Made by a program: the position numbers and the translations under genes
Assembly (NCBI GenBank): GCA_965112635.1
Contig: OZ218778.1
Location: forward strand, 1,845,807-1,909,806
Reading direction: 5' to 3'
DNA: 64,000 bases
From: an uncultured bacterium
GTDB lineage: Bacteria > Oederibacteriota > Oederibacteriia > Oederibacteriales > Oederibacteriaceae
Part shown: positions 1-59,809 of the stretch, one piece after another
Position numbering within the stretch: the first letter of the stretch is position 1
Layout of the letters: every line of letters starts with the position of its first letter
Notes under the pieces: generated by a model
What the model saw: only the letters and a program-made list of their open reading frames with translations
What the model was told of the DNA's origin: nothing
Databases searched by the model: none

Positions 1-3000
1 CAGACCTACACGTTGACTAATACAGCTACCGTTACATCCACGAATACGAACACCCAGACCGCTACCGCCACGGCCACACAGACCTATTCTTTGACCAACA
101 CAGCTACAGCTACGGCCACGAACACAAACACGCGGACAGCTACCAGCACGGCCACTTACACGCTAACCAGCACCGCTACCGCCACGGCCACGCAGACCTA
201 TACTTTAACTAACACCGCTACAGCTACGGTTACGAATACAAACACGCGGACGGCCACAAGCACGGCTACCTATACTTTGACCAGCACCGCTACAGCTACG
301 AATACGGCCACGAACACGGCTACCAATACGGCTACTAGCACAGCTACAAATACGGCCACCCAGACGGCGACCTCAACCGCTACCGCCACAGCTACATCTA
401 CGGTTACCGCCACCAATACGGCCACCAGCACTACTACCAGCACAGCAACTAATACGACTACCAACACAGCTACTAATACAGCCACCCAGACCGCTACCGC
501 CACGGCCACACGGACCTATTCTTTGACCAACACAGCTACGAACACAGCTACACCAACGCTGACCTCAACTACTACCGCAACAGCTACATCTACGGTTACA
601 GCGACCAATACGACAACGAATACTGCAACAAATACGGCTACGAACACAACTACTCAGACAGCGACCTCAACTACTACTGCCACAGCTACATCCACGATTA
701 CAGCGACCAGCACGGCTACTAATACGGCCACTAACACAGCAACCAATACTGGGACAAATACTGCCACGAATACTGTTACCCAGACGATGACCGCAACTAT
801 TACTGTCACAGCTACATCTACAGCTTCAGCCACCAATTCGGCTACGAACACAGCTACTAACACGGCGACTAATACGGCCACGAACACGGCTACAAATACT
901 GCCACGAATACAGCCACCCAGACGGCGACCTCAACTGCTACCGCCACAGCTACATCTACGGTTACCGCCACCAATACGGCCACCAGCACTACTACCAGCA
1001 CAGCAACTAATACGACTACCAACACAGCTACTAATACAGCCACCCAGACCGCTACCGCCACGGCCACACAGACCTATTCTTTGACTAACACAGCTACCGC
1101 TACATCCACGAACACAAACACGCAGACGGCCACAAGCACGGCCACTTACACGCTAACCAGCACAGCTACGGCCACCGCTACGCAGACCTATACTTTGACC
1201 AGCACCGCTACAGCTACGGTTACGAATACAAACACGCGGACGGCCACAAGCACGGCTACCAATACGGCTACTAGCACAGCTACAAATACGGCCACCAACA
1301 CAGCTACGAACACAGCTACACCAACGCTGACCTCAACTACTACCGCAACAGCTACATCTACGGTTACAGCGACCAATACGACAACGAATACTGCAACAAA
1401 TACGGCTACGAACACAACTACTCAGACAGCGACCTCAACTACTACTGCCACAGCTACATCCACGATTACAGCGACCAGCACGGCTACTAATACGGCCACT
1501 AACACAGCAACCAATACTGGGACAAATACTGCCACGAATACTGTTACCCAGACGATGACCGCAACTATTACTGTCACAGCTACATCTACAGCTTCAGCCA
1601 CCAATTCGGCTACGAACACAGCTACTAACACGGCGACTAATACGGCCACGAACACGGCTACAAATACTGCCACGAATACAGCCACCCAGACGGCGACCTC
1701 AACTGCTACCGCCACAGCTACATCTACGGTTACCGCCACCAATACGGCCACCAGCACTACTACCAGCACAGCAACTAATACGACTACCAACACAGCTACT
1801 AATACAGCCACCCAGACCGCTACCGCCACGGCCACACAGACCTATTCTTTGACCAACACAGCTACAGCTACGGTTACGAATACAAACACGCGGACGGCCA
1901 CAAGCACGGCTACCAATACGGCTACTAGCACAGCTACAAATACGGCCACCAACACAGCTACGAACACAGCTACACCAACGCTGACCTCAACTACTACCGC
2001 CACAGCTACATCTACGGTTACAGCGACCAATACTTCTACGAATACAGCTACTAATACGCCCACCAATACAGCTACTTGGACTGCGACCCCAACCGCCACT
2101 GCCACATCAACATCTACAGTTACAGACACCAGTACAGCTACTTATACTGGGACAAATACGGCTACGAACACCACTACCAATACGGCCACTAACACGGCAA
2201 CCAACACAGCGACGAATACAGCTACAAGTACGGCAACCAGCACGAGTACCACGACAAATACGGTAACGAATACAGTTACTAACACAGCCACAAATACGGT
2301 TACTTGGACAATGACTAATACGGCTACCAACACAGCTACAAATACAGCCACCCAGACGGCGACCTCAACTGCTACCGCCACAGCTACATCTACGGTTACA
2401 GCGACCAATACGACAACGAATACTGCAACAAATACCGCAACGAACACAACTACTCAGACAGCGACCTCAACTACTACTGCCACAGCTACATCCACGATTA
2501 CAGCGACCAGCACGGCTACTAATACGGCCACTAAAACAGCAACCAATACTGGGACAAATACTGCCACGAATACTGTTACCCAGACGATGACCGCAACTAT
2601 TACTGTCACAGCTACATCTACGGTTACCGCAACCAATACGGCCACAAACACAGCTACGAATACGGCTTCTCAGACAACAACAGCAACAACTACTACTACA
2701 GCTACCAATACAGCTACTAATACGTCCACCAATACTGCTACTTGGACTGCGACCCTAACTGCCACTGCCACGTTAACATCTACAGTTACGGCCACCAGTA
2801 CAGCTACTTATACTGGGACAAATACGGCTACGAACACCGCTACCAATACAGCTACTTGGACAGCAACTAATACGGCCACCAACACAGCTACGAACACAAA
2901 TACTCAGACAGCGACCTCAACTGCTACTGCCACGGCTACGTCTACTAATACAGTAACCAATACGACAACCAATACGGCCACAAATACTGCAACAAATACA

Positions 3001-6000
3001 TCCACGATTACAGCTACCCAGACGGCAACAACAACTGCTACTGCCACTGCTACATCTACGGTTACAGCTACCAATACAGCTACTGATACGACAACGAATA
3101 CGGCCACAAATACGACTACGAACACCACTACCAATACGGTTACTAACACGGCAACAAATACAGCGACGAATACGGCTACCAGTACGGCAACCAGTACGAG
3201 TACCACTACGAACACAGCCACGAACACAGCCACTAATACTGCGACAAATACAGGCACAAATACTGCTACCCAGACGATGACATCAACTGTTACTGCCACA
3301 GCTACATCTACTGCTACAACTACCAATACGGCGACCAGCACGGCAACTAATACAGCTACGAATACAGCTTCTCAGACAGCAACCGCAACCCCTACCGCCA
3401 CAGCTACGGCTTCTAATACAACAACCAATACTGCAACAAATACTGTCACTACCACGACTACCAACACGGCCACTACTACAGTTACCAATACGGCTACAAA
3501 TACCACTACAGATACGGCAACTAATACGACTACCAGCACAGCTACAAACACAGCAACTCAGACTTCTACGAACACCACTACCAGCACAGCTACAAATACG
3601 GTTACAAATACGGCTACTTCTACAATAACCAACACAGCTTCGAGTACCGCTACAAACACAACAACTAATACGATTACCAATACTGCTACAAACACAGCGA
3701 CTCAGACTGTGACGAACACGGCTACCATTACAGCTACAAGCACGACTACAAACACAGCTACGAACACGGCAACTAGCACTGCGACAAATACAGCGACGAA
3801 TACAGCTACAAGTACTGCAACAAGTACGAGTTCCGCTACCAATACAGCTACCAACACTGCTACAAATACCGTCACTAATACTGCTACGAACACGGCAACC
3901 AATACTGCGACAAATACAACGACGATTACAGCTACCCAGACGGCGACCTTAACTACTACTACCACAGCTACATCTACGGTTACGGCAACCAACACGGCTT
4001 CTAATACAACAACAAATACTGCTACCAGCACGGCCACTAATACGGCAACAAATACTGCTACAAATACTGCCACGAATACTGCTACACAGACGGCGAGCTC
4101 AACTGTTACTGCCACAGCGACAGCTACATTGACAGCGACCAACACAACCACAAACACGACTTCCAATACAACTACGAACTCAGACACTCCAACAGCTACG
4201 AACACCGCTACCATTACAGTTACCAGTACGGCCACTAATACTATGACTAATACATCAACTAGTACTGGCACGAATACCAATACAACAACCCAAACAACCA
4301 CGAACACAACAACAAATACGGCTACTTGGACGGCGACTATTACTCCTACTAATACCACCACGAACACAGCTACAAACACGACTACAAACACAACCACGAA
4401 CACAGCAACTAACACTGCGACAATTACTTCAACTACTACCACTACCAATACTGCCACCAATACGGTTACTAACACTGCAAGCAATACTGCTACAAATACA
4501 GCGACGATTACTGCTACCCAGACGGCGACCTCAACTGCTACCGCCACAGCTACATCTACGGTTACAGCGACCATCACAACTACTAACACGACTACGAATA
4601 CCGCTACGAACACGACCACTAATACAGCTACCAATACAGCGACCAATACGGCTACGAATACCGCCACGAATACAACAACTAATACGACTACCAATACAGC
4701 TTCAAACACGGCAACCCAGACGGCTACGAACACCGCTACTATTACCTCTACAAACACGACTACAAACACAGCCACCAACACGGAAACTAACACTGTGACT
4801 ATTACTTCAACTACTACCGCTACCAATACTGCCACCAACACCGCGACGAGTACTGCAACTAATACAGCTACAAACACGACCACGGGAACCGTAACAAATA
4901 CTGCAACCAACACAGCGACTCAGACGGCTACGAGCACCACTACAAATACAGCTACCAATACGGCCACCAATACTGTGACCAATACATCAACTAGTACAGG
5001 TACGAATACCGATACGGCAACCCAAACAACTACGAATACAACAACAAATACGGCGACTTGGACGGCGACTAATACTCCTACTAATACCATCACGAACACT
5101 TCCACTAACACGACTACAAATACCACAACAAATACTGCAACTAATACGGTAACGAACACAAATACGATCACGAATACAGCGACCCAGACGATTACCAATA
5201 CTGTGACCAGTACAACAACAAGCACCACGACTTATACAACAACGAACACGAGCACCAGCACTAACACGGCGACTCAAACCGCAACGAATACAACTACAAG
5301 CACTGTTACAAATACAAGCACCCAAACAGCGACAAATACGACTACTCAGACCGCCACTCAAACAGCAACTCAGACAGAGACAGTTACTGCAACCGACACG
5401 GCAACTCAAACTGCCACCCAGACAATCACTCAGACAGCGTCAAGTACGGAGACCGTCACGAATACCACCACAGCAACCAGCACGACTACGACAACCAATA
5501 CAACTACTGCAACTTGTTCGTCTACCTTGACCGCAACTCCTACAGTGACCAGCACGTTGACAACGACCTTTACGGGGACAAGTTCAGCAACTCAAACGGC
5601 GACTGCAACTAGTACAAATACGAATACGAATACTGCAACAGGCACTACGACCAATACGGAAACTAATACAGCTACTCAGACTGCTTCGAGTACCGTGACA
5701 ACAACTGGCACGCCGACGAATACGGTTACCTCGACAGCCACTATTTCCCTTACATTCACAAATACAGTGACTCAAACCACAACAGCTACGGCTACTTTGA
5801 CGGTTACGACTACTACTACAAGTACAATTACAAATACTGCCACCACCACCAATACGGAGACATCGACATCTACCAGCACGACCACTGGTTCGGAGACTGC
5901 TACAAGTTCCGCGACAACGACGCCCACTAATACTGGTACCTCAACCACTACCGCAACGGAAACGATTACCGCTACTATAACTTGTACATTTACCGAAACT

Positions 6001-7974
6001 TACACGGAAACTAGCACATCAACTAATACAGCTACTCCTACAAATACCTGCACTGTAACTGTGACTACAACTTCAACTGAAACTATGACTTCCACCTGTT
6101 CTTACACTGCCACTTTGACAGATACAGTGACTTTAACTTGGACTGAAACAGCAACTTGTACTGAGACGGCAACCTGGACTGAAACAAGTTCACCAACAGC
6201 AACTGCCACGATCACGCTGACCCCAACCTCGACTCAGACAGGGACCCAAACGGCGACTCAGACTGATACGCAATCTGCAACCTCTACGGGCACCCCAACA
6301 AGCACTAACACAGTTTCGAATACAGTGACCCAGACAAGTACCAGCACTTTAACTTCAACGTTGTCATCTACCGGAACGACCACATCAACTGGGACAATAA
6401 CGAGCACGGGAACAATGACTATGACAGCGACTAATACAGGTACAGTGACGTTGAGTTCTACCTCAACCAATACCCCCACTCCAACTCCAACAAGTAGTGC
6501 CACCAATACGATTACGCTGACTTATACTCAAACTAAGACTGGCACCGTCACCACTACAGCAACACAAACAGCAACGGTGACCACGACAGGCACCATCACC
6601 CTTACCTTTACACAAACGGCTACATCTACGATGACCGCCACGACGACCATGACAGCAACGATCACCCTGACCAGTACTATTACTTTGACTTTTACGCAGA
6701 CGGCAACAGCTACTAACACGGCAACGATCACTCTGACTTTCACGAGCACCAATTCTGCTACAAACACTGATACAGCATCTAGGACGAGCACCGCCACCAT
6801 GACAGCGACTATTACTCTGACCCCAACTATCACCCAGACACCTACAACAACTACTACATATTCTTTGACCCTAACTCCGAGTTTAACCTTTACTTATTTG
6901 CCTTCTTCTACCCAAACCATGACAAGCACCATTAGCCCAACTTCATCCAAAACACCAACAATCACTTTGACATTTACCCAATCCTTAACAACGACTAATA
7001 CCGGTACCGTGACGGTTACCATGACCATCACTACTACCGGGACCATAACGGCTACCTCCACTTCAACACAAACTTATTCGAGGACGGCGACTATCACCCT
7101 CACTGCCACAATTTCCAATACGCCCTCTCAAACCCTAACGCTTACAATTACAACCACCTCGTCCCTCACGCCTACTTCGACTAACACCAGTACAGCAACA
7201 AGGACTGCGACAGTTACCGCGACGAGCATTGGAACCTCTACCCAAACATGGACCTTAACCACCACTCTGACCCTAACCTATACTCCCACTACCACTATGA
7301 CCATTACGCTCACCACGACCCCTACGACGACTCCAACGCCCTCACTTACCCTAACCAGCACCTATTCAGTCACGTCTTCCCAAACCTTCACTGCTAGCAC
7401 GACCTTCACGATCACTCCCACCCCTGGACCTTCTACTCTAACGGTCCAGGTTTTGGATGCGTTTGATGAACTGAGGTTGTCTGGGGCCACGGTTTCTATC
7501 ACAGGGCCTTCAGGAACGCTAACTGGCAGTACGGATGGACGGGGGAATGTTACCTTTAACGGACTAGTCTTTGGGTCATATACCGTAAGTGCTTCAATGA
7601 CCGGCTATAATGGATCTTCAGGGAATGCTGTGCTAGCTCAACTAAATAATAGTTTGTTGATACGGCTCTACACGCAGTACAAGTCCAGTGTCCCTTATCT
7701 GACCAAGAACATAATCAACCCACTGAAAAATGAGAGCCTTGAGATCGGATGTCTGCTTACTCAGAAAGAGCACGTTTTGATCAAGATATTTACCCTTTCT
7801 GGCGGGGCAGAGATCATCACTCTTGTTGATCAGGACATTAGTCAGGGTCGCTATGCTGTAGAATGGTTCGGCAAAACCATTAATGGTGACACTGTGGGCA
7901 ATGGGATTTATATAGTCTTTATTCAACTCGGGACTGACAGGTTCATCAAGAAAGTCGCTGTAGTTAAGCAATAA
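1..7974 (+). CDS. Giant surface/secreted protein, 5'-partial (>2,650 aa). About 2,400 residues of alternating Thr-X (TNTATNTAT...), then a CarboxypepD_reg-like beta-sandwich (~7441-7680) and a C-terminal FlgD-Ig/T9SS-CTD-like domain (~7690-7974)
   Basis: Frame 1 is open from nt 1 (QTYTLTNTAT...), so the N-terminus lies outside the window. Thr sits at every second position from residue 1 to about 2450. The C-terminus reads GATVSITGPSG..DGRGNVTFNGLVFGSYTVSASMTGY (CarboxypepD_reg pattern), then NPLKNESLEIG..VLIKIFTLSGGAEIITLVD..VEWFGKT.NGDTVGNGIYIVFIQL..KKVAVVKQ. The same C-terminal domain family is shared by all cargo proteins in this window. Confidence 0.8.
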   Translation, partial: QTYTLTNTATVTSTNTNTQTATATATQTYSLTNTATATATNTNTRTATSTATYTLTSTATATATQTYTLTNTATATVTNTNTRTATSTATYTLTSTATATNTATNTATNTATSTATNTATQTATSTATATATSTVTATNTATSTTTSTATNTTTNTATNTATQTATATATRTYSLTNTATNTATPTLTSTTTATATSTVTATNTTTNTATNTATNTTTQTATSTTTATATSTITATSTATNTATNTATNTGTNTATNTVTQTMTATITVTATSTASATNSATNTATNTATNTATNTATNTATNTATQTATSTATATATSTVTATNTATSTTTSTATNTTTNTATNTATQTATATATQTYSLTNTATATSTNTNTQTATSTATYTLTSTATATATQTYTLTSTATATVTNTNTRTATSTATNTATSTATNTATNTATNTATPTLTSTTTATATSTVTATNTTTNTATNTATNTTTQTATSTTTATATSTITATSTATNTATNTATNTGTNTATNTVTQTMTATITVTATSTASATNSATNTATNTATNTATNTATNTATNTATQTATSTATATATSTVTATNTATSTTTSTATNTTTNTATNTATQTATATATQTYSLTNTATATVTNTNTRTATSTATNTATSTATNTATNTATNTATPTLTSTTTATATSTVTATNTSTNTATNTPTNTATWTATPTATATSTSTVTDTSTATYTGTNTATNTTTNTATNTATNTATNTATSTATSTSTTTNTVTNTVTNTATNTVTWTMTNTATNTATNTATQTATSTATATATSTVTATNTTTNTATNTATNTTTQTATSTTTATATSTITATSTATNTATKTATNTGTNTATNTVTQTMTATITVTATSTVTATNTATNTATNTASQTTTATTTTTATNTATNTSTNTATWTATLTATATLTSTVTATSTATYTGTNTATNTATNTATWTATNTATNTATNTNTQTATSTATATATSTNTVTNTTTNTATNTATNTSTITATQTATTTATATATSTVTATNTATDTTTNTATNTTTNTTTNTVTNTATNTATNTATSTATSTSTTTNTATNTATNTATNTGTNTATQTMTSTVTATATSTATTTNTATSTATNTATNTASQTATATPTATATASNTTTNTATNTVTTTTTNTATTTVTNTATNTTTDTATNTTTSTATNTATQTSTNTTTSTATNTVTNTATSTITNTASSTATNTTTNTITNTATNTATQTVTNTATITATSTTTNTATNTATSTATNTATNTATSTATSTSSATNTATNTATNTVTNTATNTATNTATNTTTITATQTATLTTTTTATSTVTATNTASNTTTNTATSTATNTATNTATNTATNTATQTASSTVTATATATLTATNTTTNTTSNTTTNSDTPTATNTATITVTSTATNTMTNTSTSTGTNTNTTTQTTTNTTTNTATWTATITPTNTTTNTATNTTTNTTTNTATNTATITSTTTTTNTATNTVTNTASNTATNTATITATQTATSTATATATSTVTATITTTNTTTNTATNTTTNTATNTATNTATNTATNTTTNTTTNTASNTATQTATNTATITSTNTTTNTATNTETNTVTITSTTTATNTATNTATSTATNTATNTTTGTVTNTATNTATQTATSTTTNTATNTATNTVTNTSTSTGTNTDTATQTTTNTTTNTATWTATNTPTNTITNTSTNTTTNTTTNTATNTVTNTNTITNTATQTITNTVTSTTTSTTTYTTTNTSTSTNTATQTATNTTTSTVTNTSTQTATNTTTQTATQTATQTETVTATDTATQTATQTITQTASSTETVTNTTTATSTTTTTNTTTATCSSTLTATPTVTSTLTTTFTGTSSATQTATATSTNTNTNTATGTTTNTETNTATQTASSTVTTTGTPTNTVTSTATISLTFTNTVTQTTTATATLTVTTTTTSTITNTATTTNTETSTSTSTTTGSETATSSATTTPTNTGTSTTTATETITATITCTFTETYTETSTSTNTATPTNTCTVTVTTTSTETMTSTCSYTATLTDTVTLTWTETATCTETATWTETSSPTATATITLTPTSTQTGTQTATQTDTQSATSTGTPTSTNTVSNTVTQTSTSTLTSTLSSTGTTTSTGTITSTGTMTMTATNTGTVTLSSTSTNTPTPTPTSSATNTITLTYTQTKTGTVTTTATQTATVTTTGTITLTFTQTATSTMTATTTMTATITLTSTITLTFTQTATATNTATITLTFTSTNSATNTDTASRTSTATMTATITLTPTITQTPTTTTTYSLTLTPSLTFTYLPSSTQTMTSTISPTSSKTPTITLTFTQSLTTTNTGTVTVTMTITTTGTITATSTSTQTYSRTATITLTATISNTPSQTLTLTITTTSSLTPTSTNTSTATRTATVTATSIGTSTQTWTLTTTLTLTYTPTTTMTITLTTTPTTTPTPSLTLTSTYSVTSSQTFTASTTFTITPTPGPSTLTVQVLDAFDELRLSGATVSITGPSGTLTGSTDGRGNVTFNGLVFGSYTVSASMTGYNGSSGNAVLAQLNNSLLIRLYTQYKSSVPYLTKNIINPLKNESLEIGCLLTQKEHVLIKIFTLSGGAEIITLVDQDISQGRYAVEWFGKTINGDTVGNGIYIVFIQLGTDRFIKKVAVVKQ
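290..2650 (+). repeat. Near-perfect long tandem DNA repeats inside the giant ORF (units of about 560-780 bp; e.g. 537-1304 vs 1305-2072, 343-520 vs 903-1080 vs 1683-1860)
   Basis: Minus-strand antisense ORFs 654..1067 and 1422..1835 give identical 137-aa translations. Visible nucleotide identity over hundreds of bp (e.g. gccacccagacggcgacctcaactgctaccgccacagctacatctacggttaccgccaccaatacggccaccagcactactaccagc recurs three times). Confidence 0.85.
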
Positions 7975-8030
7975 ATACACATGATTTTCGGTTGTTTTAT
8001 CTGGGAGGAACAGTTGAAAGGCTGGCTTAA

Positions 8031-8426
8031 ATGAACTGGAAAAAGGTTGTTCTTTGTATTTTTATTACCCTTTTCTCCTTATGGGGCAATCTTGCATTCA
8101 GCCAAGGCATTCCATGGCTGGACCAAGATGGGTTGTTTCTGGGCCATAACAAGATCAATCCGCTGAATCATGAGTCTGTATCTGTTGTCTATCATTTGGC
8201 GCAGGACACCCATGTGGTCATAAAAATTTATGATCTTTCCGGCCAGAAACTTATCAGGACATTAGTGGACGGGAATTTTGGAGGGAGTTGGTCATACCAA
8301 GTTTTTTGGGATGGCACCAGTAGAAGTGGAGATGTTGTTGGAAATGGTATTTACGTCATTCAGTTAGTAACCAAAAGTGTAAATATACTCAAATTCATTG
8401 CCGTGGTTAAAACCACAGGCAGTTAA
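8031..8426 (+). CDS. Small secreted protein made only of a signal peptide plus one FlgD-Ig/CTD-like domain (CTD-only minigene; paralog of the giant ORF C-terminus)
   Basis: MNWKKVVLCIFITLFSLWGNLAFSQG signal peptide. NPLNHESVSV..VVIKIYDLSGQKLIRTLVD..VFWDGTSRSGDVVGNGIYVIQL..KFIAVVK closely parallels the last 90 aa of 1..7974. GGGAGG RBS at ~8001. Confidence 0.7.
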   Translation: MNWKKVVLCIFITLFSLWGNLAFSQGIPWLDQDGLFLGHNKINPLNHESVSVVYHLAQDTHVVIKIYDLSGQKLIRTLVDGNFGGSWSYQVFWDGTSRSGDVVGNGIYVIQLVTKSVNILKFIAVVKTTGS

Positions 8427-8432
8427 AGGGGG

Positions 8433-10085
8433 GTGGGTAGGGTGCAAATCTTTATGGTTGGTTTGGTCATTCTGTTGATGTGGGCGCCCAATGTTTTTGG
8501 CACGGCTTTTGGAACCACGGGCCAAAATTTTCTAACCATTGGCGTTGGTGCAAGGCCGACGGCGATGGGAGGGGCTTTCGTCGGTCTAGCTGACGACCCT
8601 GATGCGATCCACTGGAACCCAGCTGGTTTGATTAATCTTGAAGACTATGAAATTTCCCTGATGCATAGCGCTCTCATCGGAGACGTCAGCTATGATACCG
8701 TTTCCTACGCCCAGCCCATAGCTGTTGATTATGGTTATATTGGAGCCGGCATTGCCTATTTAGGTGTCCCCCCGTTTGATAATACCGTTGGTCGCGAAAA
8801 CTCGATCTCTGCCCATAATTTCCTGTTAGACATTGCCTATGCGAATCGATTGAGCGATATGTTTGATATAGGCAATCCAATCGGCCGGCGTTTAAGTTTG
8901 GGACTAGGTATAAAATGGATCAATTTTTCGATCGATAACTTGGTGAGTTATAATGACGTGGCCTTCGATGTTGGCACCTATTTCATCACTCCCTGGGAAC
9001 CGTTAACTCTGGGCGCGAGTTTGCAAAATTTAGGTATTTCTCTGGACCCTGCCGCTGTTTCAGACCCACTGCCTTTGACCTTTAGATGCGGAGCGTGTGT
9101 CCACATTGCAGACCTATCTATGCAGCTTGACCTGATCCAGCAAGTGGATAATGACGCCGTGATAGGATGGGGAACAGAATATAATTTCCAGGATTTATTG
9201 TTCCTAAGGGGTGGTTATGCGATTGGCGGGCCTTCTCTAAACGGGTTGTCCGGGATAACATGCGGTGCCGGATGGAGGATGAGGTCCTTTGAGTTTGATT
9301 ATACCTTTGTACCTATGGGGGAGTTGGGCGCCACCCACCGTTTTTCTCTTAACGTTTCCTTTGAACAGGAGCTCAAAGAATTACGTAAGAATCTGGCCGT
9401 GGAATCCAAAGACAAGGTCCAAAAAGATGAAATCATTGCTTTATATAAGAAGGGCAATGAATTCTATTATCAGGGGAACTACACTCAAGCTTTGGATGCC
9501 TGGCAGCAGATCCTGATCGTGGACCCGAAAAATCAAAAAGCGCAGGAAAGAATCACTTTTACCACGAACCTTTTGAACAAGAAGTTCACGGAAAACGAAG
9601 CAACGCAGTATTATGAACAGGGAATGAGTGATTATTCGGCTGGTGACTACGAAAAGGCTTTGGAACAATGGGCTAGTGTCCAAAAGATAGTTCCCGATTA
9701 CTTGAATATAAAGGAGATGATAAGTAAGGCAGAGGCGAAGTTGGCTGAAAAGAGAGTCGACAGGGCTGGAGTGGGTCCTTTGCTTGAAGCTGCTCGTACT
9801 TCCTATAAACAAGGGCAACTGCTGGATGCCGTCAAAGATTGGAGAAAAGTTTTAGAAGCAAATCCTCAAAATCAGGAAGCCCTGAAGTCGTTAAAGGATG
9901 CTAATGCGGAGATTTTAAACTTGGCAAAGAAAACCTATGATAAGGGGTTAGAATTTTACACCAATGGGGATTACGATAATGCCATTGCCACCTGGAAAAA
10001 TGTGGTAATACTTCAGCCTGATCACCCAACCGTATTGGGTGATATTGAGAGAGCCCAGAAAGAGGTAAATTCGTTGAAAAAATAA
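8433..10085 (+). CDS. FadL/TodX/PorV-family outer-membrane beta-barrel fused to a C-terminal ~240-aa TPR-like extension
   Basis: N-terminal signal peptide. FadL-family N-motif GARPTAMGGAFVGLADDPDAIHWNPAGL. Barrel ends with a beta-signal-like FSLNVSF, followed by four or more TPR-like repeats (YYQGNYTQALDAWQQILIVDPKN..., YEKALEQW..., WRKVLEANPQN..., YDNAIATWKNVVILQPDH). The start may be GTG 8433/8442 or ATG 8454. Confidence 0.65.
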   Translation: MGRVQIFMVGLVILLMWAPNVFGTAFGTTGQNFLTIGVGARPTAMGGAFVGLADDPDAIHWNPAGLINLEDYEISLMHSALIGDVSYDTVSYAQPIAVDYGYIGAGIAYLGVPPFDNTVGRENSISAHNFLLDIAYANRLSDMFDIGNPIGRRLSLGLGIKWINFSIDNLVSYNDVAFDVGTYFITPWEPLTLGASLQNLGISLDPAAVSDPLPLTFRCGACVHIADLSMQLDLIQQVDNDAVIGWGTEYNFQDLLFLRGGYAIGGPSLNGLSGITCGAGWRMRSFEFDYTFVPMGELGATHRFSLNVSFEQELKELRKNLAVESKDKVQKDEIIALYKKGNEFYYQGNYTQALDAWQQILIVDPKNQKAQERITFTTNLLNKKFTENEATQYYEQGMSDYSAGDYEKALEQWASVQKIVPDYLNIKEMISKAEAKLAEKRVDRAGVGPLLEAARTSYKQGQLLDAVKDWRKVLEANPQNQEALKSLKDANAEILNLAKKTYDKGLEFYTNGDYDNAIATWKNVVILQPDHPTVLGDIERAQKEVNSLKK

Positions 10086-12295: not shown

Positions 12296-14278
12296 GTGCC
12301 AGAGAAAAGCGAGGTTGTTTTAAATATTGAGGGTAACAGGGTAACGGTTTCTGCAGAGACCAGTTCTTTGTCTATTCTGCGGATGTTTGTGGACAGAAAA
12401 CTTCGGGAGTTTTCCTTCAAACAAGATGACATTGATGCAATCGAATTGGCCGTTGACGAAGCCTGCACAAATATTATTGAGTACGCTTATCCTGATGCCC
12501 CAGGTCCAGAAAAGACCATTACGCTTGAAATTGGGTTGACCAGGGATGATGTCCATGTATTTATTATGGATTATGGAGTCCCCGTTCCCGAAAAGGTCGT
12601 AAAAAAATTTAGCAGCGTTAAAGGAAAGCCTAAAGGCGAACAAGTGGGGGGCTGGGGTATCTACTTAATTGCTAATTCGGTCAACGAGGTTCGATATAGT
12701 CGCAAAAAGAACGCAAATATTTTGAGATTAAAAAGAAAGCGTTTGAAATTATCAGCAGTCGCAGGGAGGCGTCCTTTTTTTGTGGGCTCTCTTTCTTTAC
12801 GGGCCCAATTTAACGCCTATATTTTCTTCATCTTTTTAGTAAGTGCTGTTTGTATAGCCTTTTTGATCATCCCACAAGAGCGCCGTATCATAGAAAGCAG
12901 ATCAATCAACAATGGCATATGGCTGGCTAGGAATTTCGCCGGCAGGGTCACGGCTCCTTACTTAGCGCATGATCAGTTGACCCTGGCAGTAACCGCCCGC
13001 TTAATGGAGGAAAATCCCCAGGTCGCCTACGCTGTCATTACCGATTCAAAAGATATAGTCCAAATAGACCCAAAAGGGCAGCTGTCTGGTTTATTATTCA
13101 GCCATGGGTATTTTGGAAATCCTATTTTAGCGCAAGAAAATGTGCGATGCAGAGAAGCGAGGGTTTTAGATATGAATGTCTATGACCTTCAGTCAGATCT
13201 CACAATCAGGCATCTTAATAAGGCAGTGACTCTCGGCTCCATTCACCTGGGTTTGAACCGCAATATCATTAATCAGGTCATCAATGATGCTATCAGGAAC
13301 ATTGGAATTATCGCTATTATGATCCTATTAGTCATACTTGTTTTAACGTCGATCATGACAGAGTTTGTAATTCGGCCTATTAGAAAGCTAATGGCCGGAG
13401 TTCGACAAATAGGGAACGGTTATTTCGATTATCGCCTTGATTTGAAAAGTACCCAGGAGTTAAAAGAGCTTTCGGATGCTTTTAATATCATGGCTCGCGA
13501 CTTAAAGCAAGGGCGCGAAACGCAGCTAGAAAAGATCAAGATCGAGCAGGAGCTGGATATGGCCAGCCATGTCCAAAAACTGTTATTGCCCAAAGAGATC
13601 CCGTCCATTCCGGGTTGCGACTTTGGAATGTTCTACCGGTCAGCCAAACAACTGGGAGGAGATTATCTAGATTTTATACCTATCAGTGATGAGTTGATGG
13701 GTATTGTGATCGCCGATGTGGCAGGAAAGGGAGTTCCCGCCGCATTGATGATGTCCAATGTTCGGAGTACCCTAAGGGCTGCAGCTAAAAGCGAAAGGTC
13801 ACCCAAAAAAGTTCTGACTTTTCTAAATGAGCAAATAACCAAAGATACCACGCCGGATGTTTTTATAACGATGCTTTACTGTATTTTTAATTTGCAAAAC
13901 AGGGAAATTAAATATGCTTCAGCAGGACATTGTCCCTTGCTTTGCTTGCCTGCTGGACGCAATAAGATTATTGAATATAAAACCCTGGGTTTTCCACTGG
14001 GAATAGAGCAGGGGCCAAAGTTTGAGGAAAGGTTGGAAGAAGGGGATCAATTGTTAAAGACCGGAGATATTATAGTGTTATACTCCGACGGGGTGAATGA
14101 AGCTTTTAACAACAGAGGTGAAGAATTCGGAGAAAAGAGACTTTTTGAAGCCATTCTTAAGAACCAAGATTTAACTGCCCAGCAGTTAGCTACTCTAATT
14201 GAAAATGAAGTTAGTTCCTTTATTGGACAAAAGAAACGCAGCGATGATATCAGTATTATCACCTGTAAAATAAAATAA
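12296..14278 (+). CDS. Partner-switching signalling protein: N-terminal RsbW/SpoIIAB-like GHKL anti-sigma kinase domain, TM, periplasmic sensor, TM, HAMP, then PP2C/SpoIIE Ser phosphatase
   Basis: GHKL motifs AVDEACTNIIEYAY..FIMDYGVP..GGWGIYLIANSV. Two TM helices flank a ~150-aa loop. HAMP (IRPIRKLMAGVRQIGNGYFDYRL..ELSDAFNIMARDL). PP2C motifs GGDYLDFIPI..GIVIADVAGKGVPAALMMS..VLYSDGVNEAFN..DDISIITCKI. GTG start with GGAGG RBS. Confidence 0.7.
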   Translation: MPEKSEVVLNIEGNRVTVSAETSSLSILRMFVDRKLREFSFKQDDIDAIELAVDEACTNIIEYAYPDAPGPEKTITLEIGLTRDDVHVFIMDYGVPVPEKVVKKFSSVKGKPKGEQVGGWGIYLIANSVNEVRYSRKKNANILRLKRKRLKLSAVAGRRPFFVGSLSLRAQFNAYIFFIFLVSAVCIAFLIIPQERRIIESRSINNGIWLARNFAGRVTAPYLAHDQLTLAVTARLMEENPQVAYAVITDSKDIVQIDPKGQLSGLLFSHGYFGNPILAQENVRCREARVLDMNVYDLQSDLTIRHLNKAVTLGSIHLGLNRNIINQVINDAIRNIGIIAIMILLVILVLTSIMTEFVIRPIRKLMAGVRQIGNGYFDYRLDLKSTQELKELSDAFNIMARDLKQGRETQLEKIKIEQELDMASHVQKLLLPKEIPSIPGCDFGMFYRSAKQLGGDYLDFIPISDELMGIVIADVAGKGVPAALMMSNVRSTLRAAAKSERSPKKVLTFLNEQITKDTTPDVFITMLYCIFNLQNREIKYASAGHCPLLCLPAGRNKIIEYKTLGFPLGIEQGPKFEERLEEGDQLLKTGDIIVLYSDGVNEAFNNRGEEFGEKRLFEAILKNQDLTAQQLATLIENEVSSFIGQKKRSDDISIITCKIK

Positions 14279-14294: not shown

Positions 14295-14654
14295 ATGAGT
14301 GAAACTGGTTTGGATATTGTTATTGCCGGGACAGAGTCTAAAAAAGGATGCAAATTAATATTAAAAGGGTATTTAGACGCTGAAACTGTTCCAAAGTTAA
14401 ATGCCAAAATGAAAGATGTTATCCAACAAAAAACAAGCAAAATAATACTTGATCTACAAGAGATATCTTTTATTAGCAGTGCAGGGTGGGGAGCGTTGGT
14501 GATTTTGGCAAAAACGGCTCAAAGAGAAAAAGGAAACATAGTACTAATCAATTTGGGCCCTAAGCTGGCCAGGACCTTTAATCTTTTGGACCTATCTCCA
14601 ATCTTGCAAGTATTTTCTAGTGAAGCCGATGCGTCTGCATTTTTGAATAAATAA
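14295..14654 (+). CDS. STAS-domain anti-sigma-factor antagonist (RsbV/SpoIIAA-like)
   Basis: 119 aa. KIILDLQEISFISSAGWGALVILAKTAQREKGNIVLINLGPKLARTFNLLDL has the typical STAS fold signature with the conserved phospho-Ser context (ISSAG). Lies 16 bp downstream of the kinase/phosphatase gene. Confidence 0.75.
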   Translation: MSETGLDIVIAGTESKKGCKLILKGYLDAETVPKLNAKMKDVIQQKTSKIILDLQEISFISSAGWGALVILAKTAQREKGNIVLINLGPKLARTFNLLDLSPILQVFSSEADASAFLNK

Positions 14655-26563: not shown

Positions 26564-26605
26564 GATTAATCCGTAATTTTAAGCGATGACGCGAAAGGAT
26601 TTTTG

Positions 26606-29251
26606 ATGTTTGGAAAGTTGCTGACCGACATTTTCGGGACCAAGCATGGACGGGCCGTCAAGGTTTTGATGCCCAGGGTCGAGGCTATCAATGCTGTGGA
26701 GCCGCAGATCCAAAAGCTCAGTGATGACGAGCTGAAGAACAAAACAGCCGAGTTCAAGGACCGGTTGAGCCATGGCGAGACTTTGGACGACCTCCTGGTG
26801 GAAGCGTTTGGCGTGGTCAGGGAGGCCAGTAAAAGGACCATGGGAATGAGGCATTTTGACGTCCAGCTTCTGGGCGGCATGTTCCTGCACCAAGGCAAAA
26901 TTTCCGAGATGAGGACAGGCGAAGGAAAAACCCTGGTGGCTACCCTGCCTGTTTATCTCAACGCCCTGACCGGCAAGGGCGTGCATGTGGTCACGGTCAA
27001 CGATTACCTGGCCGAGAGGGACAGCCTGGGCAGGGGTAATTTCAAGGGCATGGGAAACATCTACCAGTTCTTAGGGCTGACCGTGGGCTGCATCAAGCAT
27101 GACCTGCCTACCCTGGAGCGCCAGGCGGCCTACCACGCGGACATCACCTACGGGACCAATAATGAGTTTGGTTTTGATTATTTGCGGGACAATATGGTCA
27201 CGCACCCACAAGAGCGGGTGCAAAGGGAACTGAATTACGCCATCGTGGACGAAGTGGACAGCATCCTCATTGATGAGGCCAGGACACCCCTCATCATTTC
27301 AGGGCCAGCCGAGGAATCCACCGATAAATACGTGAAAATCGACCGCATTATCCCCAGGCTCAATCCCTCCACGGACTATAAAGTTGATGAAAAAAGCAGG
27401 ACCGTGGCCTTGACCGAGGAAGGCGTGACCAAAGCCGAGAAACTCATCAACGTGGGCAACCTCTATGACAACGTGAACATCGAACTGGTGCACCATATCA
27501 ACCAGGCCTTAAAAGCCCACACTCTTTTCAAGCGGGACGTCGATTATGTGGTGAAGGCCGGAGAGGTCATTATCGTGGATGATTTCACGGGCCGGCTCAT
27601 GCCCGGCCGCAGATACAGCGACGGCCTGCACCAGGCTTTGGAGGCCAAGGAAAAGGTCGAGGTGGCCCGGGAGAACCAAACCCTCGCCACGATCTCTTTC
27701 CAAAACTACTTCCGTCTGTACAAGAAGCTTTGCGGAATGACCGGTACGGCGGACACCGAGGCCGCGGAGTTCTGGGAGATCTACAAGCTGGACGTGGTGG
27801 TGGTCCCGACCAACCGGCCCATGGTCCGGGAAGACGCGCCTGACCTTATCTATAAGGACAAAAAGCAGAAGATCAAGGACGTGGTCAACGAGATCGCGGA
27901 ACGGAGCCGCAAGGGACAGCCTGTGCTGGTGGGAACGGTTTCGATAGAGAAGAACGAAGAGCTTTCCGAGGCTTTGAAAAAACGGGGAGTACCCCATCAG
28001 GTCCTCAATGCCAAGCAGCACGAACGCGAAGCCGAGATCATCTCCTTGGCCGGCCAAAAAGGGGCGGTCACGGTAGCCACCAACATGGCCGGCCGGGGCG
28101 TGGATATCGTGCTGGGCGAGGGCGTGGTGGACCTGGGCGGTTTGCATGTCATAGGCACGGAACGGCACGAGAGCAGGCGCATCGACAACCAGCTCAGAGG
28201 ACGGTCGGGCCGGCAAGGCGACCCGGGTTCCAGCCGGTTCTACGTGGCTTTTGAAGACGATCTGATGCGCATTTTCGCCAACCAATGGGTCACCTCGCTG
28301 ATGGGCAAACTGGACGACCTGGACGGGGCTCTTACAGACCATCCCTGGGTGAGCCGGGGCATCGAAAGGGCCCAAAAGGCCGTGGAAGGGCATAACTTTG
28401 AGATCCGCAAGCACCTCATTGAGTATGACGACGTGATGAACAAGCAGAGAGAGGTCATTTATAGGGAACGGAGCTTGGTGTTGGAGGGGGCCAACCTCAA
28501 GCCCCATGTCCTGGAGATGATGCGGGATGTGGTCAGCGAACTGGTCGGACCTTACGCGCCGGCCAAAGTCTATCCCGAAGAATGGCCCCTCAAGGACCTG
28601 CAGGCCAGGGTCAAGCAGGACTTTCCCGTCGTGCTGGACCTGACCGGCGTGGAAATAGTCCGGCTGACCCGTGAAAACCTGGAGAATATCCTATACGACG
28701 AACTTTTAAAGGCCTACGAGAACAAGGAAAAAGAGGTCGGGCCGGACACCCTGCGGGAAATAGAAAGAGCGGTCCTTTTGCAGGTTGTGGACACCCAGTG
28801 GAAAGACCATCTGTACAACATGGACCAGCTCAAGGAAGGCATCGGCCTGCGGGGTTATGGTCAAAAAGACCCTCTGGTGGAATACAAGAGGGAAGGTTAT
28901 GAGATGTTCAGCGCTATGATCCAGCGCATCAAGGAAGAGACCGTCCAGTTCATCTTCAAGGTCAAGGTGGTGACCCAGCAGGCTCCAGCCAGCAGTCTAT
29001 TGCCCAGGCGTTACAGGGAAGAGCACCCGGAGTTCGACCGGGCCAAGGCTGTGGCTCCCCAGAGGCAGCCGGAGCCCGCGGCAGGTCCTTACGGCCAGGC
29101 GCCTTTTGGAGCGCCGCCAGGTTATCCGCCGCCCCAGGAAGAGTCTAGGGAAAAATTGCAACCCGTCACCAGGGACAAGCCAAAAATTGGGCGTAATGAC
29201 CCCTGTTTTTGCGGCAGCGGTAAAAAGTACAAGAAATGCCACGGGGCCTAG
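26606..29251 (+). CDS. secA: Preprotein translocase ATPase SecA
   Basis: [34 protein letters not shown] (Walker A), [19 protein letters not shown], and C-terminal Zn finger [14 protein letters not shown]; ~881 aa. Confidence 0.95.
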
Positions 29252-32508: not shown

Positions 32509-35175
32509 ATGGGCAGACGACTCGTTTTACTTATCATCCTATTTTGGTCTGTTTCGGCCTGGAAAGCTGAGGCGGCAGTGTACTGGTATATGGAGGCGCC
32601 CGGCTGGGTCGAACCCACCGGCAATCCCGATTGGACGAACCTGTCGTACTTTAATGTCTACAACGAGCTGACCACCACGGCCACAGGCCCAATCCTCGTG
32701 ACCTATACCCTGGCGAATGGTCTCACTTTTAAGCCCGTCTCTTTCGGATTACAGCCGTCCAGCGTCAACTATGACGCCGGCACCGGGGTGACCACCGTGA
32801 CCTATAATTTGGGCAGTATGGCCGGACAGACCAATAACTATGGTTATTGCGGCTTTGCTATCAATTACACCACGGTCAACCCCACGACCCTGATCCAGGA
32901 AAACCAGCAATTCACTGTGACAGCGACCCTGAGCGGGGCCAGCAGCGTCAGTGCCAACCCCCAGAGCTTCCAGGCGCCCGCTTTATTCGAGACCGTCGGC
33001 AAGAACATTGATCCCGACCCGATCGAGGCGGTGCCGAGCACGGCCACGGCCAACCTCTATTTGGAAACTTCGCAATATTATAACTGCTCCAACCTCGTGG
33101 TCTGGGATACGCTTCCCAACGGCACCTCCTACATCCCCGGCACCAGTTATCTGGATAACGAGACCAGCGATGAACCCGGGTCCGGGACCCAGCTCTGCCG
33201 TCCTGACGGGACTTCGCTGCTGGTGTGGTCTGTTCCAGCTGACCCTTGGACCCTGGCCGGGTCAGACCCCGTCCTGAGCTACGGGTTCACCATCAACTCG
33301 AATTACAGCGTTACGGGCTGCGACAGCGCCGGAGCGCCGGTCTATTGCACCGACATGCTGCCCAATCTCGTGGGTGACAGCTTTAATTACGCCAGCATCA
33401 GCGGCCAGTCCCCGGCCAACGCGGGATCCGCCCTGCAAACCGGTGTGTTTGCGGACATCGATATCGACGACCCCTCCATCACCAAGACCATCGGGAGCAT
33501 TACCGACAGCCAGGGTAACCCTGTTTCGGGTAGTTATGTCACGCCCGGCGATATCGTGACCTACAGCATCACGGTAGTTTCTCCGACGGCACCTACCCAT
33601 GACCTCAAGGTCAGGGATTTCCTGCCATCATCCATGGCTTTTTTGGGTTCCCTTACCAATTACACCACGACCGGAGGCGTGCCCGCGCCGACCCAGAGTT
33701 TTGTCAATTCCAATTTGTGCTACTGGACCTGGTCCGCGGATTTTCCCAAGGGCGGGTCCTGGAACGTCACCTTCCAGACCCAAGTGCTGGATAATACCTA
33801 TTTGCCCGACCCCGGGGCCTCGACCCTGACCAACATGGGCGATTTTTGGGACACTAATACCTCGGGGACCACCTCGGGGTTGGGACAGTACGATGCCCCG
33901 GATTTGACCTACCAGAACAATGTGGTTACGACCAAGAGCGCCAGCAAAAGCACGGGTACTGGCGGCGATATCATTAACTATACGATCGCGGTCACCAATA
34001 ACGGCGGCAGGGCCATTAACAATGTTGAGGTCTTTGACACCATCCCGGCCGGCATGACCTATGTCAGCAGCACGCCCACGGCCAGTTCCGAGGCCGTCAA
34101 CGGGGACTCCAGCACCACGGTCAAATGGAACAACCTGGGGATTCTGAACCCCGGCAGTTTCCTGACCCTCTATGTGTCCGCCTCGGTCAATCCGGGCGAC
34201 CCGGGAGGGGAGACACTGACCAATTTTGTCGCCCCTGTTTTTTACTCCTCCCAGCTGACCCCTGGAGCGCCCGGGAGGAACTATTACAACGGCGTTACGG
34301 CTTTGGCCAGCGTGCAGGTGGCCACCTGGACCATGACCCCGACCCAGACCAGGACAGCGACCGCCACCAGCACGCAGACCTATACCGCCAGCGCGACCGC
34401 CACCCCCACCAGCACCGCGACCCAGACCTCGACGGCGACGCAGACCCTGACCAGGACCTATTCGCTTACCGGGACGCAGACTTTCACTCTCACGCAGACC
34501 CTGACCCCGTCCCTGACGCTGACCAGCAGTTACACGGCCACCGCCACCAGCACGGCCACGCAGACATCCACTTCGACCTTGACGCTGACCCCATCCGAAA
34601 CTTTTACCCCCAGCGAGACGGCCACTTACAGCCAAACCTCCACGCAGTCCTATACGGTCACCCTGACCCTGACCCCTTCCAAGACTTTTACCCCCAGCGA
34701 GACGGCCACGATCACTTTGACCTGGACCATCACCTGCACTTCGACCAATTCCTATACCAGCACGCAAACCCTGACCCCTTGCCAGACCCTGACGCCATCC
34801 CAGACCCTGACGCCATCCCTGACCCAGACCCATACCCCAACCTTGACGCCGTCCCACACCGCGACAGCCACGCCTACCTTTATCACCACACCTCCCGCAG
34901 TCGGGACATCCTTTATTTATCCCTCACCGGCTACCGGGGACACGGCGGCCATTGCTTTTTTCATGTCCGTGCCAGGGAACTTCAAGATACGGGTGTATAA
35001 CGAGGCAGCCGAACTGGTGGAGACCGTAGAGGGGAATATGCAGGCAGGGCCGCAGTTGAGCATGATCCATACTAGGGACTATGTTTCAGGAGTTTACTTG
35101 TATATTATCAAGTTGGATTACGGGTCGCAGGGTTCCATCAAAATCGGTCCCAAGAAGTTCATTGTGTTGCATTAG
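32509..35175 (+). CDS. Secreted cargo protein: DUF11/CARDB-like repeat domains, TQT/TxT stalk, FlgD-Ig/CTD-like C-terminal domain
   Basis: Signal peptide. DUF11-type segments (VVWDTLPNGTSYIPGTSY; TIAVTNNGGRAINNVEVFDTIPAGMTYVSS). Stalk TQTRTATATSTQTYTASATATPTSTATQTSTATQTLT... (~34330-34900). C-terminus FIYPSPATGDTAAIAFF..FKIRVYNEAAELVETVEG......GVYLYIIKL. Confidence 0.7.
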   Translation: MGRRLVLLIILFWSVSAWKAEAAVYWYMEAPGWVEPTGNPDWTNLSYFNVYNELTTTATGPILVTYTLANGLTFKPVSFGLQPSSVNYDAGTGVTTVTYNLGSMAGQTNNYGYCGFAINYTTVNPTTLIQENQQFTVTATLSGASSVSANPQSFQAPALFETVGKNIDPDPIEAVPSTATANLYLETSQYYNCSNLVVWDTLPNGTSYIPGTSYLDNETSDEPGSGTQLCRPDGTSLLVWSVPADPWTLAGSDPVLSYGFTINSNYSVTGCDSAGAPVYCTDMLPNLVGDSFNYASISGQSPANAGSALQTGVFADIDIDDPSITKTIGSITDSQGNPVSGSYVTPGDIVTYSITVVSPTAPTHDLKVRDFLPSSMAFLGSLTNYTTTGGVPAPTQSFVNSNLCYWTWSADFPKGGSWNVTFQTQVLDNTYLPDPGASTLTNMGDFWDTNTSGTTSGLGQYDAPDLTYQNNVVTTKSASKSTGTGGDIINYTIAVTNNGGRAINNVEVFDTIPAGMTYVSSTPTASSEAVNGDSSTTVKWNNLGILNPGSFLTLYVSASVNPGDPGGETLTNFVAPVFYSSQLTPGAPGRNYYNGVTALASVQVATWTMTPTQTRTATATSTQTYTASATATPTSTATQTSTATQTLTRTYSLTGTQTFTLTQTLTPSLTLTSSYTATATSTATQTSTSTLTLTPSETFTPSETATYSQTSTQSYTVTLTLTPSKTFTPSETATITLTWTITCTSTNSYTSTQTLTPCQTLTPSQTLTPSLTQTHTPTLTPSHTATATPTFITTPPAVGTSFIYPSPATGDTAAIAFFMSVPGNFKIRVYNEAAELVETVEGNMQAGPQLSMIHTRDYVSGVYLYIIKLDYGSQGSIKIGPKKFIVLH

Positions 35176-37783: not shown

Positions 37784-37912
37784 GCTTTTTCCCTTTCCGT
37801 AACTTGATAATCGATCCCTAACTCTCTATACTTTAACAGAAAACTATTGTAATCTCATTTGCAGGCACGAACAATACCTGAAGAAAAACCATTGGTAAAA
37901 AAGAAGAAAACC

Positions 37913-53725: not shown

Positions 53726-53754
53726 ACACAGGGAACACAGGCAGATAAGAGTGA

Positions 53755-55992: not shown

Positions 55993-56087
55993 TCCTTTGG
56001 AATAGGGAAATTAGAAGATTATCTACGTGTTTCTTCAATTATATGGCAAAAAACGGTTGTATTGGTCTTTGCAAATCCTGGGTATTT

Positions 56088-59744: not shown

Positions 59745-59809
59745 CAGTATTTCCCGTGAAACTTTTTTGAAGTTACAAGATCAATGGCCGGCCAAAAAAT
59801 GTTTCATGC

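Follow-up and report, generated by a model that had tools for sequence, protein, structure and literature searches.

Several kinds of bacterial surface protein carry a long repetitive region next to the part that holds them at the cell. In the serine-rich repeat glycoproteins of Gram-positive cocci (SRRPs; for example, Fap1, GspB, PsrP and Srr1/2), the SRR2 region is a glycosylated stalk, and its polymorphism alters the size of the protein (PMC7661464). Low-complexity stalks beside an anchor are extended and disordered (PMC10367597), and the Ser-Asp (SD) stalks of staphylococcal Sdr/Clf proteins have been found by experiment to be disordered, highly extended and glycosylated on the hydroxy residue (PMC3794999, PMC10367597). 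In type IX secretion (by the T9SS), PorV is the shuttle for type A sorting domains in Porphyromonas gingivalis (PMC5562754), and substrates can depend on adjacently encoded shuttles, as shown for type B substrates and cognate proteins of the PorP/SprF type in Flavobacterium johnsoniae (PMC12618676). Here, we analyzed a 64,000-nt stretch of DNA (hereafter the window) from an uncultured bacterium of the Oederibacteriota (assembly GCA_965112635.1, contig OZ218778.1, positions 1,845,807 to 1,909,806), which opens inside a giant open reading frame (ORF) that consists almost wholly of alternating Thr-X residues and contains long, near-identical DNA repeats.

The giant ORF (1-7974, + strand) is open from the first base of the window to a stop codon at 7972-7974 and thus comprises at least 2,658 codons without a stop. 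Frame +1 is the sole frame open throughout this interval, and antisense ORFs do not exceed 403 aa. Positions 1-7308 (+ strand) encode a (Thr/Ser-X)n tract, hereafter the Thr-X (TX) tract, in which 1,218 dipeptides (no fewer than 2,436 aa) follow one another in unbroken register: Thr or Ser occupies 1,216 of the 1,218 T positions (1,171 Thr and 45 Ser, with 2 exceptions). The X positions are mostly Ala (362) and Asn (261), followed by Ser (143), Thr (98), Gln (62), Val (61) and Pro (28, or 2%). The repeats consist of 52% Thr and 8% Ser, charged residues (D/E/K/R) account for 1-2% of the tract, and the string of X residues falls into modules that read Q-[ASAAASVA]-(NA)n and are 34-46 aa long.

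Like the SRRPs, this protein carries hydroxy-amino-acid repeats beside an anchor, and the repeat region of SRRPs forms a long stalk whose size is polymorphic between alleles. However, the residue is Thr instead of Ser, the anchor is a Gram-negative sorting domain instead of a cell-wall anchor, and the glycosylation is putative. Moreover, neither a non-repeat binding region flanked by two Ser-rich regions nor an accessory Sec and glycosyltransferase island (SecY2, Asp and Gtf genes) was found within the window. The SD stalks share with the giant tract a strict dipeptide alternation beside the anchor, but SD is charged whereas TX is essentially uncharged, the giant tract is about 10 times longer, and the envelope and the secretion route differ. 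We consider it fairly probable that the gene encodes a T9SS-type surface protein held by its C terminus, the TX body of which serves as an extended, hydrophilic and probably glycosylated spacer or brush whose length drifts by recombination between modules.

Near-identical repeats within the giant gene

Long repeats were located by a diagonal scan of all offsets and by an exact-run search. Tandem Repeats Finder has a period ceiling of 500, so that longer units (for example, the 768-nt period) are invisible to it; it reported dozens of overlapping arrays with periods of 12, 24, 36, 48, 102, 114, 126 and 138 nt. The initial annotation of this DNA, made from the sequence alone, had claimed near-identical repeats inside the giant ORF, and both searches as well as shuffled controls confirmed them. 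The longest is an exact 560-nt repeat (526-1085 and 1294-1853, + strand, 100% identity), which lies in a longer match of 617 nt between 526-1142 and 1294-1910 (98.7%, offset 768). Chance could be excluded: when the 6-nt units were shuffled 100 times, no exact repeat exceeded 27 nt. The pair that the annotation had put forward as its example (537-1304 and 1305-2072) proved to be perfect up to 1085 but then diverges with a 114-nt indel; its ungapped identity is 90.5%.

Several shorter blocks of high identity were identified on the same strand. The core of module b is present in three copies (561-821, 1329-1589 and 2361-2621; 261 nt, 98%), and so is module a with a short flank (349-539, 907-1097 and 1675-1865; 191 nt, 98%), whereas a junction segment occurs twice (1183-1379 and 1837-2033; 197 nt, 98%) at an offset of 654, that is, 768 minus 114. 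Two older repeats were also found, one of them a copy of module c at 51-270 that matches 1041-1260 (220 nt, 93%; 12 synonymous and 3 non-synonymous codon differences) and the other at 2041-2183 and 2707-2849 (143 nt, 94%). Blocks of at least 93% identity thus define a zone of recent segmental duplications or gene-conversion tracts at 51-2849 (+ strand). This is slightly wider than the span of 290-2650 proposed at first, in which repeats are indeed present, and the zone may extend upstream of the window.

The arrangement of these blocks can be described by three modules on the + strand: a (349-525, 907-1083 and 1675-1851), b (526-906 and 1294-1674, plus two partial copies, 1948-2033 and 2361-2621) and c (1084-1293, a 114-nt-shorter version c' at 1852-1947, and the older copy near 51-270). 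They follow one another in the order a-b, a-c-b and a-c'-b, which gives periods of 558, 768 and 654 nt, and the second unit is without 114 nt (38 codons) that are present in the first. The blocks are sharp-edged; at 1086, for example, identity falls from 100% to about 85%. A single clean tandem duplication would account for such edges less well than recurrent homologous exchange, by gene conversion or unequal crossover, among older paralogous modules. Judged by their sequence, the repeats are evolutionarily recent in-frame duplications and gene-conversion tracts in the N-terminal-proximal, or cell-distal, part of the protein. Toward the 3' end they decay, as had been noted before: for 150-nt windows compared in frame, the best identity lies mostly at 0.8-1.0 in 1-2700 (two windows at 0.71-0.73), at 0.70-0.88 in about 2700-5050 and at about 0.6 in 5100-7300, a fall toward a background median of about 0.5.

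Each offset between repeats (558, 654, 666, 768, 990, 1032, 1326, 1422 and 1800) is a multiple of 6 nt, and so is the 114-nt indel; over the 1,218 dipeptides, the Thr register does not slip. Therefore, recombination can alter the length of the protein but cannot shift the frame or switch the gene on or off. It had been suggested earlier that crossover expands or contracts the stalk, as in phase- or length-variable surface proteins. The part concerning length finds support in a mosaic of recent in-frame duplication and gene conversion in a surface-type gene, with near-identical in-frame tandem repeats in the stalk or anchor-adjacent region as in length-variable surface proteins. The part concerning phase had to be abandoned, because in a phase-variable (on/off) contingency gene the length of the repeat unit is not divisible by 3, and changes in copy number shift the frame. 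Recombination-driven length change in repetitive surface proteins is already well known.

Repeats of this kind are also a hazard for assembly, as the initial annotation had warned, and two other assemblies were found to break off inside the gene. An ENA contig of 140.5 kb (contig_40024) stops at window position 7670, and a Logan contig from ERR11523656 at 4632; where they overlap the window (7670 onward and 4632-8484, respectively), they match it with 100% identity. These breaks, the length of the exact repeat (560 nt), which exceeds short-read and k-mer lengths, and the fact that 1-4631 is covered by no independent assembly could indicate that the sequence family is real but that the arrangement or copy number in 1-2850 was made by the assembler, through collapse or a spurious copy, in which case recent duplication would be over- or understated. 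We regard this as unlikely, since the copies can be told apart (8 mismatches within 1086-1142, the 114-nt in-frame indel and a third copy at 98%) and both the frame and the Thr register are intact across all junctions. In addition, the neighbouring genes are on an NCBI contig of 2,876,006 nt, a size that would be expected of a long-read assembly, and the gene for a related TX protein assembled elsewhere (P0125, see below) also has internal tandem repeats (120-nt units, 88% identity).

Annotation of the gene is affected as well. A gene caller run on the Logan contig gave eight antisense ORFs and a 225-aa sense fragment, and for the NCBI contig carrying the neighbouring genes only a 114-aa fragment of the giant protein is on record. 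The antisense ORFs at 654-1067 and 1422-1835 (- strand) have identical translations, as stated originally, and encode (Val-X)n; they were considered as genes and rejected, being a by-product of the complement of (ACN NNN)n. Thus, short-read assemblies break at genes of this type, and annotation wrongly turns them into antisense ORFs or short fragments; the hazard is real for both steps, and statements on the copy number or length of such genes need long reads.

Selection, composition and predicted structure of the tract

When the old paralogous repeats were compared, synonymous changes far outnumbered non-synonymous ones in the T register (121 versus 6), but were the minority in the X register (43 versus 100). 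Synonymous change has reached saturation while Thr has been conserved, and this strong purifying selection on Thr indicates that the tract is translated. It is therefore highly improbable that the tract is a functionless, runaway low-complexity expansion that is decaying or untranslated, or that the true gene is only the short C-terminal part. Such an explanation could draw on the gene callers, which gave nothing but fragments of 114-225 aa and antisense ORFs, and on the finding of no sequence homologues beyond the sorting domain. However, besides the retention of Thr, there are no stops in 2,658 codons and no indel that disrupts the 6-nt register, a sorting domain would be meaningless without a secreted body upstream of it, and the syntenic gene on contig L008 (see below) encodes a full cargo protein of 3,121 aa.

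The four Thr codons are used almost evenly in the tract (ACA/ACC/ACG/ACT 0.29/0.23/0.27/0.20), whereas ACC (0.56) prevails over ACA (0.07) in the other genes of the window. Spreading of the tRNA load, avoidance of DNA repetitiveness or relaxed codon selection may be the cause. The coding strand of the giant gene is also strongly skewed (GC skew about -0.38, AT skew about +0.40).

The composition of the X positions changes along the protein, with the fraction of ILVFMWYC climbing from 0.10-0.13 to 0.38 toward the C terminus. In one stretch at 5770-6240 (aa ~1925-2079), the Thr register persists but Cys, Glu, Trp, Tyr and Phe occur at X (for example, TCTFTETYTET...TCTVTV...TWTETATCTETATWTET); this stretch may form a small folded insert of the stalk, held by disulfide bonds. 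In single-sequence AlphaFold2 runs, the distal TX segment had a predicted local distance difference test (pLDDT) score of 30.8 and no secondary structure, and the run that took in the C-proximal TX region and the C-terminal domains one of 37.5, with 10-residue strands in that TX region at very low confidence.

These data bear on whether the TX tract might instead form a regular beta structure (a beta-solenoid, a silk-like or a cross-beta fibre) with one continuous Thr face, acting as a fibre or as a surface that binds ice, minerals or polysaccharides; the repeats would then be coils, and each duplication would lengthen the fibre. The alternation is perfect over 2,436 aa, the X residues, small (A, S and V) or else Asn, recall solenoid cores and Asn ladders, I/L/F at X in the anchor-proximal modules give the pattern of an amphipathic strand, and AlphaFold2 placed its low-confidence strands in this same C-proximal region. 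Furthermore, TxT or TxTxTxT arrays are the ice-binding motifs of insect and spider antifreeze proteins, which are beta-solenoids or beta-sandwiches with Thr at alternate positions. On the other hand, those proteins have a fixed coil, defined turns and about 80-150 aa, whereas the modules of the giant tract vary in length (34, 38, 42 and 46 aa, irregularly) around no constant coil and have no predicted fold. The usual turn formers, Gly and Pro, are almost absent distally, and neither pLDDT value amounts to a confident fold, although a single-sequence run is a weak test. The same TX idiom also provides short interdomain linkers here and in thousands of unrelated proteins, which fits a spacer. 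On balance, a regular beta structure seems improbable to us.

Sorting domain and neighbouring genes

The secretion part of our preferred reading, in which a C-terminally held T9SS-type protein bears an extended spacer, draws on the end of the giant protein and on the genes that follow it. A CarboxypepD_reg (prealbumin-like/Ig-like) domain lies at the base of the tract (7435-7632, + strand; PF13620, E = 4.6e-8, 33.7 bits versus a cutoff of 32.3), followed by a probable T9SS-type C-terminal sorting domain (CTD) of about 85 aa (7717-7971, + strand). The PF18962 profile (Por_Secre_tail) aligned with this tail over its full length (4-75 of 75 profile positions), albeit at a sub-threshold score (E = 0.0079, 16.9 bits versus a cutoff of 27). 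The tail is 43% identical (E = 2e-20) to that of the neighbouring 131-aa protein, which passes TIGR04183, and it shares 36-37% identity with the C-terminal ends of unrelated cargo proteins from a Zixibacteria metagenome-assembled genome (MAG) and an uncultured MAG. When the C-terminal 183 aa were used for a homology search, only the 114-aa fragment of the protein itself and one weak CarboxypepD_reg match were obtained. The same segment, scanned against GTDB representative genomes and JGI metagenomes, yielded no orthologue, only relatives at the level of the sorting domain (29-37% identity), and at related loci no long TX tract was found besides the Logan copy of the giant gene itself.

Two genes follow at short distances on the + strand, with gaps of 56 and 6-15 nt and no terminator-like sites found between the three genes. 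The first (8031-8426) encodes the 131-aa protein, which comprises little beyond a T9SS type A sorting domain (TIGR04183, 25.7 bits versus a cutoff of 23; with a FlgD_ig match). It could be a duplicated tail or a remnant, or it could serve as a decoy or regulator in the manner of PorA, which has a CTD and reportedly affects PorXY-SigP signalling (PMC7712824). The second (8442-10085) encodes an outer-membrane barrel of the PorV/PorQ family (NF033709, 161.5 bits versus a cutoff of 90) with C-terminal TPR repeats. This PorV-TPR protein is a candidate for a dedicated shuttle or attachment factor. Its relatives are all at most 36% identical, the nearest named ones being from Elusimicrobia, Delongbacteria and Edwardsbacteria.

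Further downstream of the giant ORF, a gene for a HEAT protein separates the PorV-TPR gene from a partner-switching module, which consists of a HATPase_c_2-sCache-HAMP-SpoIIE phosphatase (12296-14278, + strand) and a STAS protein (14295-14654, + strand). Both are syntenic in the distantly related contig L008 (639-14537), where a 3,121-aa cargo gene is followed by a full-length relative of the PorV-TPR protein (P0279), SpoIIE and STAS, at 28-30% identity. The L008 cargo has a signal-peptide-like start; besides short TX linkers, it contains domain repeats of about 135 aa along with a sorting domain. In a further contig (L009), an Ig-repeat cargo with a sorting domain, clipped by the contig end, precedes a PorV-TPR gene. 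The conserved order of cargo, PorV-TPR, SpoIIE and STAS hints at a secretion cassette that may be regulated by partner switching. The cassette of the giant gene is situated in a segment of lower G+C content (about 0.40-0.47 at 8-16 kb, compared with 0.52-0.58 at 18-36 kb).

Two more groupings of cargo and barrel genes are present in the window. One consists of a protein with DUF11 and a CTD (37859-39079, + strand), followed by a UPF0164-like barrel (38968-40059, + strand). The other (52781-63373, - strand) contains two CTD proteins (59810-63373, and 56088-59744, the latter having FG-GAP repeats), an S8 peptidase that also bears DUF11 (53755-55992), and a UPF0164-like barrel (52781-53725). These two barrels gave weaker, UPF0164-like matches, in contrast to the barrel at 8442-10085, which exceeds the curated cutoff. 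Taken together, the three groupings suggest that this organism may pair cargo genes with dedicated PorV-like proteins. The only SecA found in the window, encoded at 26603-29251, is canonical and carries the SEC-C motif of the housekeeping enzyme.

The locus resembles known T9SS cargo in some respects, namely a probable sorting domain of about 85 aa preceded by an Ig-like domain, a PorV/PorQ-family barrel gene directly downstream, and several pairings of cargo and barrel in the window. It differs in that the barrel carries a TPR extension, the body of the cargo is pure (TX)n and the host is apparently not a member of the Bacteroidota; further differences, the low score of the sorting domain and the machinery not seen within the window, are taken up below.

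A working model can be formulated from these observations. The protein would be exported by Sec and then by a T9SS-like pathway, after which the adjacent PorV/PorQ-TPR protein would handle the sorting domain, and the C-terminal end would be held on the outer membrane. The TX tract would then form an extended spacer or brush of great length, hydrophilic and probably O-glycosylated, and might bear an N-terminal head beyond the window; at 0.25-0.34 nm per residue, it would reach about 0.6-0.8 um if extended. Unequal crossover and gene conversion would add, remove and homogenize modules in 6-nt multiples with the frame and Thr register intact. This activity would be highest in the distal part, the anchor-proximal part being diverged and more hydrophobic.

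Several points weigh against this model. The sorting domain of the giant protein scores below the curated Pfam and NCBIfam thresholds, with no match to TIGR04183, and no core T9SS genes (SprA/Sov, PorK-N and PorU) were found within the 64-kb window. No glycosyltransferase was found near the giant gene either, and the sole candidate is a protein about 35 kb away in which a Wzy_C (O-antigen ligase-type) domain is fused to TPR repeats (43176-45146, + strand). Protein O-oligosaccharyltransferases of the PglL type also bear a Wzy_C domain, and this protein is a candidate for O-glycosylation of the Thr tract or for glycolipid attachment. The N terminus, with the signal peptide and any head domain, lies outside the window, and the term stalk is thus an analogy. 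Disorder is also open to question: even the recognizable C-terminal domains were modelled poorly in the single-sequence AlphaFold2 runs, so that low pLDDT is weak evidence for it, and the strict alternation of two residues, together with the hydrophobic X residues close to the anchor (ILVFMWYC, 38%), resembles amphipathic beta-strands. Finally, length variation in the population is a prediction made from the assembled sequence.

The Thr-X linker type and its significance

To place the giant tract among similar sequences, a 256-aa TX unit was searched against protein clusters, and it matched 4,745 cluster representatives at E <= 1e-3 (704 at E <= 1e-10). The best matches were long, multi-domain secreted proteins in which TX tracts join domains and precede sorting domains. 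Tract lengths were compared among 271 proteins fetched from these best matches, and the longest uninterrupted TX tract was 630 aa, versus at least 2,436 aa in the giant gene. It belongs to P0125, a protein with an S53 peptidase domain, Kelch repeats, an N/A-rich TX tract and a CTD, and in X composition it comes nearest to the giant tract, which it almost equals (N 0.26, A 0.22 and P 0.04). P0127, P0129, P0134, P0143 and P0148 provide further examples of a head domain followed by (TX)n and a sorting domain.

The giant tract resembles such metagenomic (TX)n or 'TPTxT' linkers (P0125, P0127, P0134, P0143 and P0148) in its alternating Thr, its position before a sorting domain and its internal tandem duplication at the DNA level. 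In contrast, those among the 271 proteins are mostly Pro-rich and at most 630 aa long, whereas Pro accounts for only 2% of X in the giant tract. Within the window itself, (T-X)n linkers of 14-38 aa occur in DUF11 and sorting-domain proteins (34324-34749, 37994-38107, 54397-54456, 57045-57524 and 61016-61861); TX is thus the general linker idiom of this organism. The idiom is ordinary, but the scale of the giant tract is not, and the gene is an extreme case of a common linker type, not a new kind of system. Our literature search found no paper that treats TX linkers as a class, and nothing relevant on threonine-rich repeats and T9SS, alternating threonine, or Zixibacteria and T9SS.

A bolder interpretation is that the locus corresponds, in a Gram-negative and T9SS-dependent setting, to the serine-rich repeat adhesins of Gram-positive bacteria. 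According to it, a conserved cassette of giant cargo, dedicated PorV-TPR shuttle and SpoIIE/STAS partner-switching regulator would be spread across deep-branching candidate phyla, the cargo in this organism would be a sub-micrometre, O-glycosylated Thr-X fibre with recombination-tuned length, and the whole class would be absent from protein databases because gene callers miss it. We offer this as a speculative proposal that is rather unlikely to hold.

With respect to protein catalogues, very long TX proteins are probably under-counted. The gene described here, with a tract of at least 2,436 residues, is an extreme example of a linker idiom placed ahead of sorting domains in many uncultivated bacteria. 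Should the tract indeed be a glycosylated stalk in extended form, its reach from the cell would be hundreds of nanometres. The conservation of the adjacent PorV-TPR and partner-switching genes points to a dedicated and testable cassette for secretion and its regulation.

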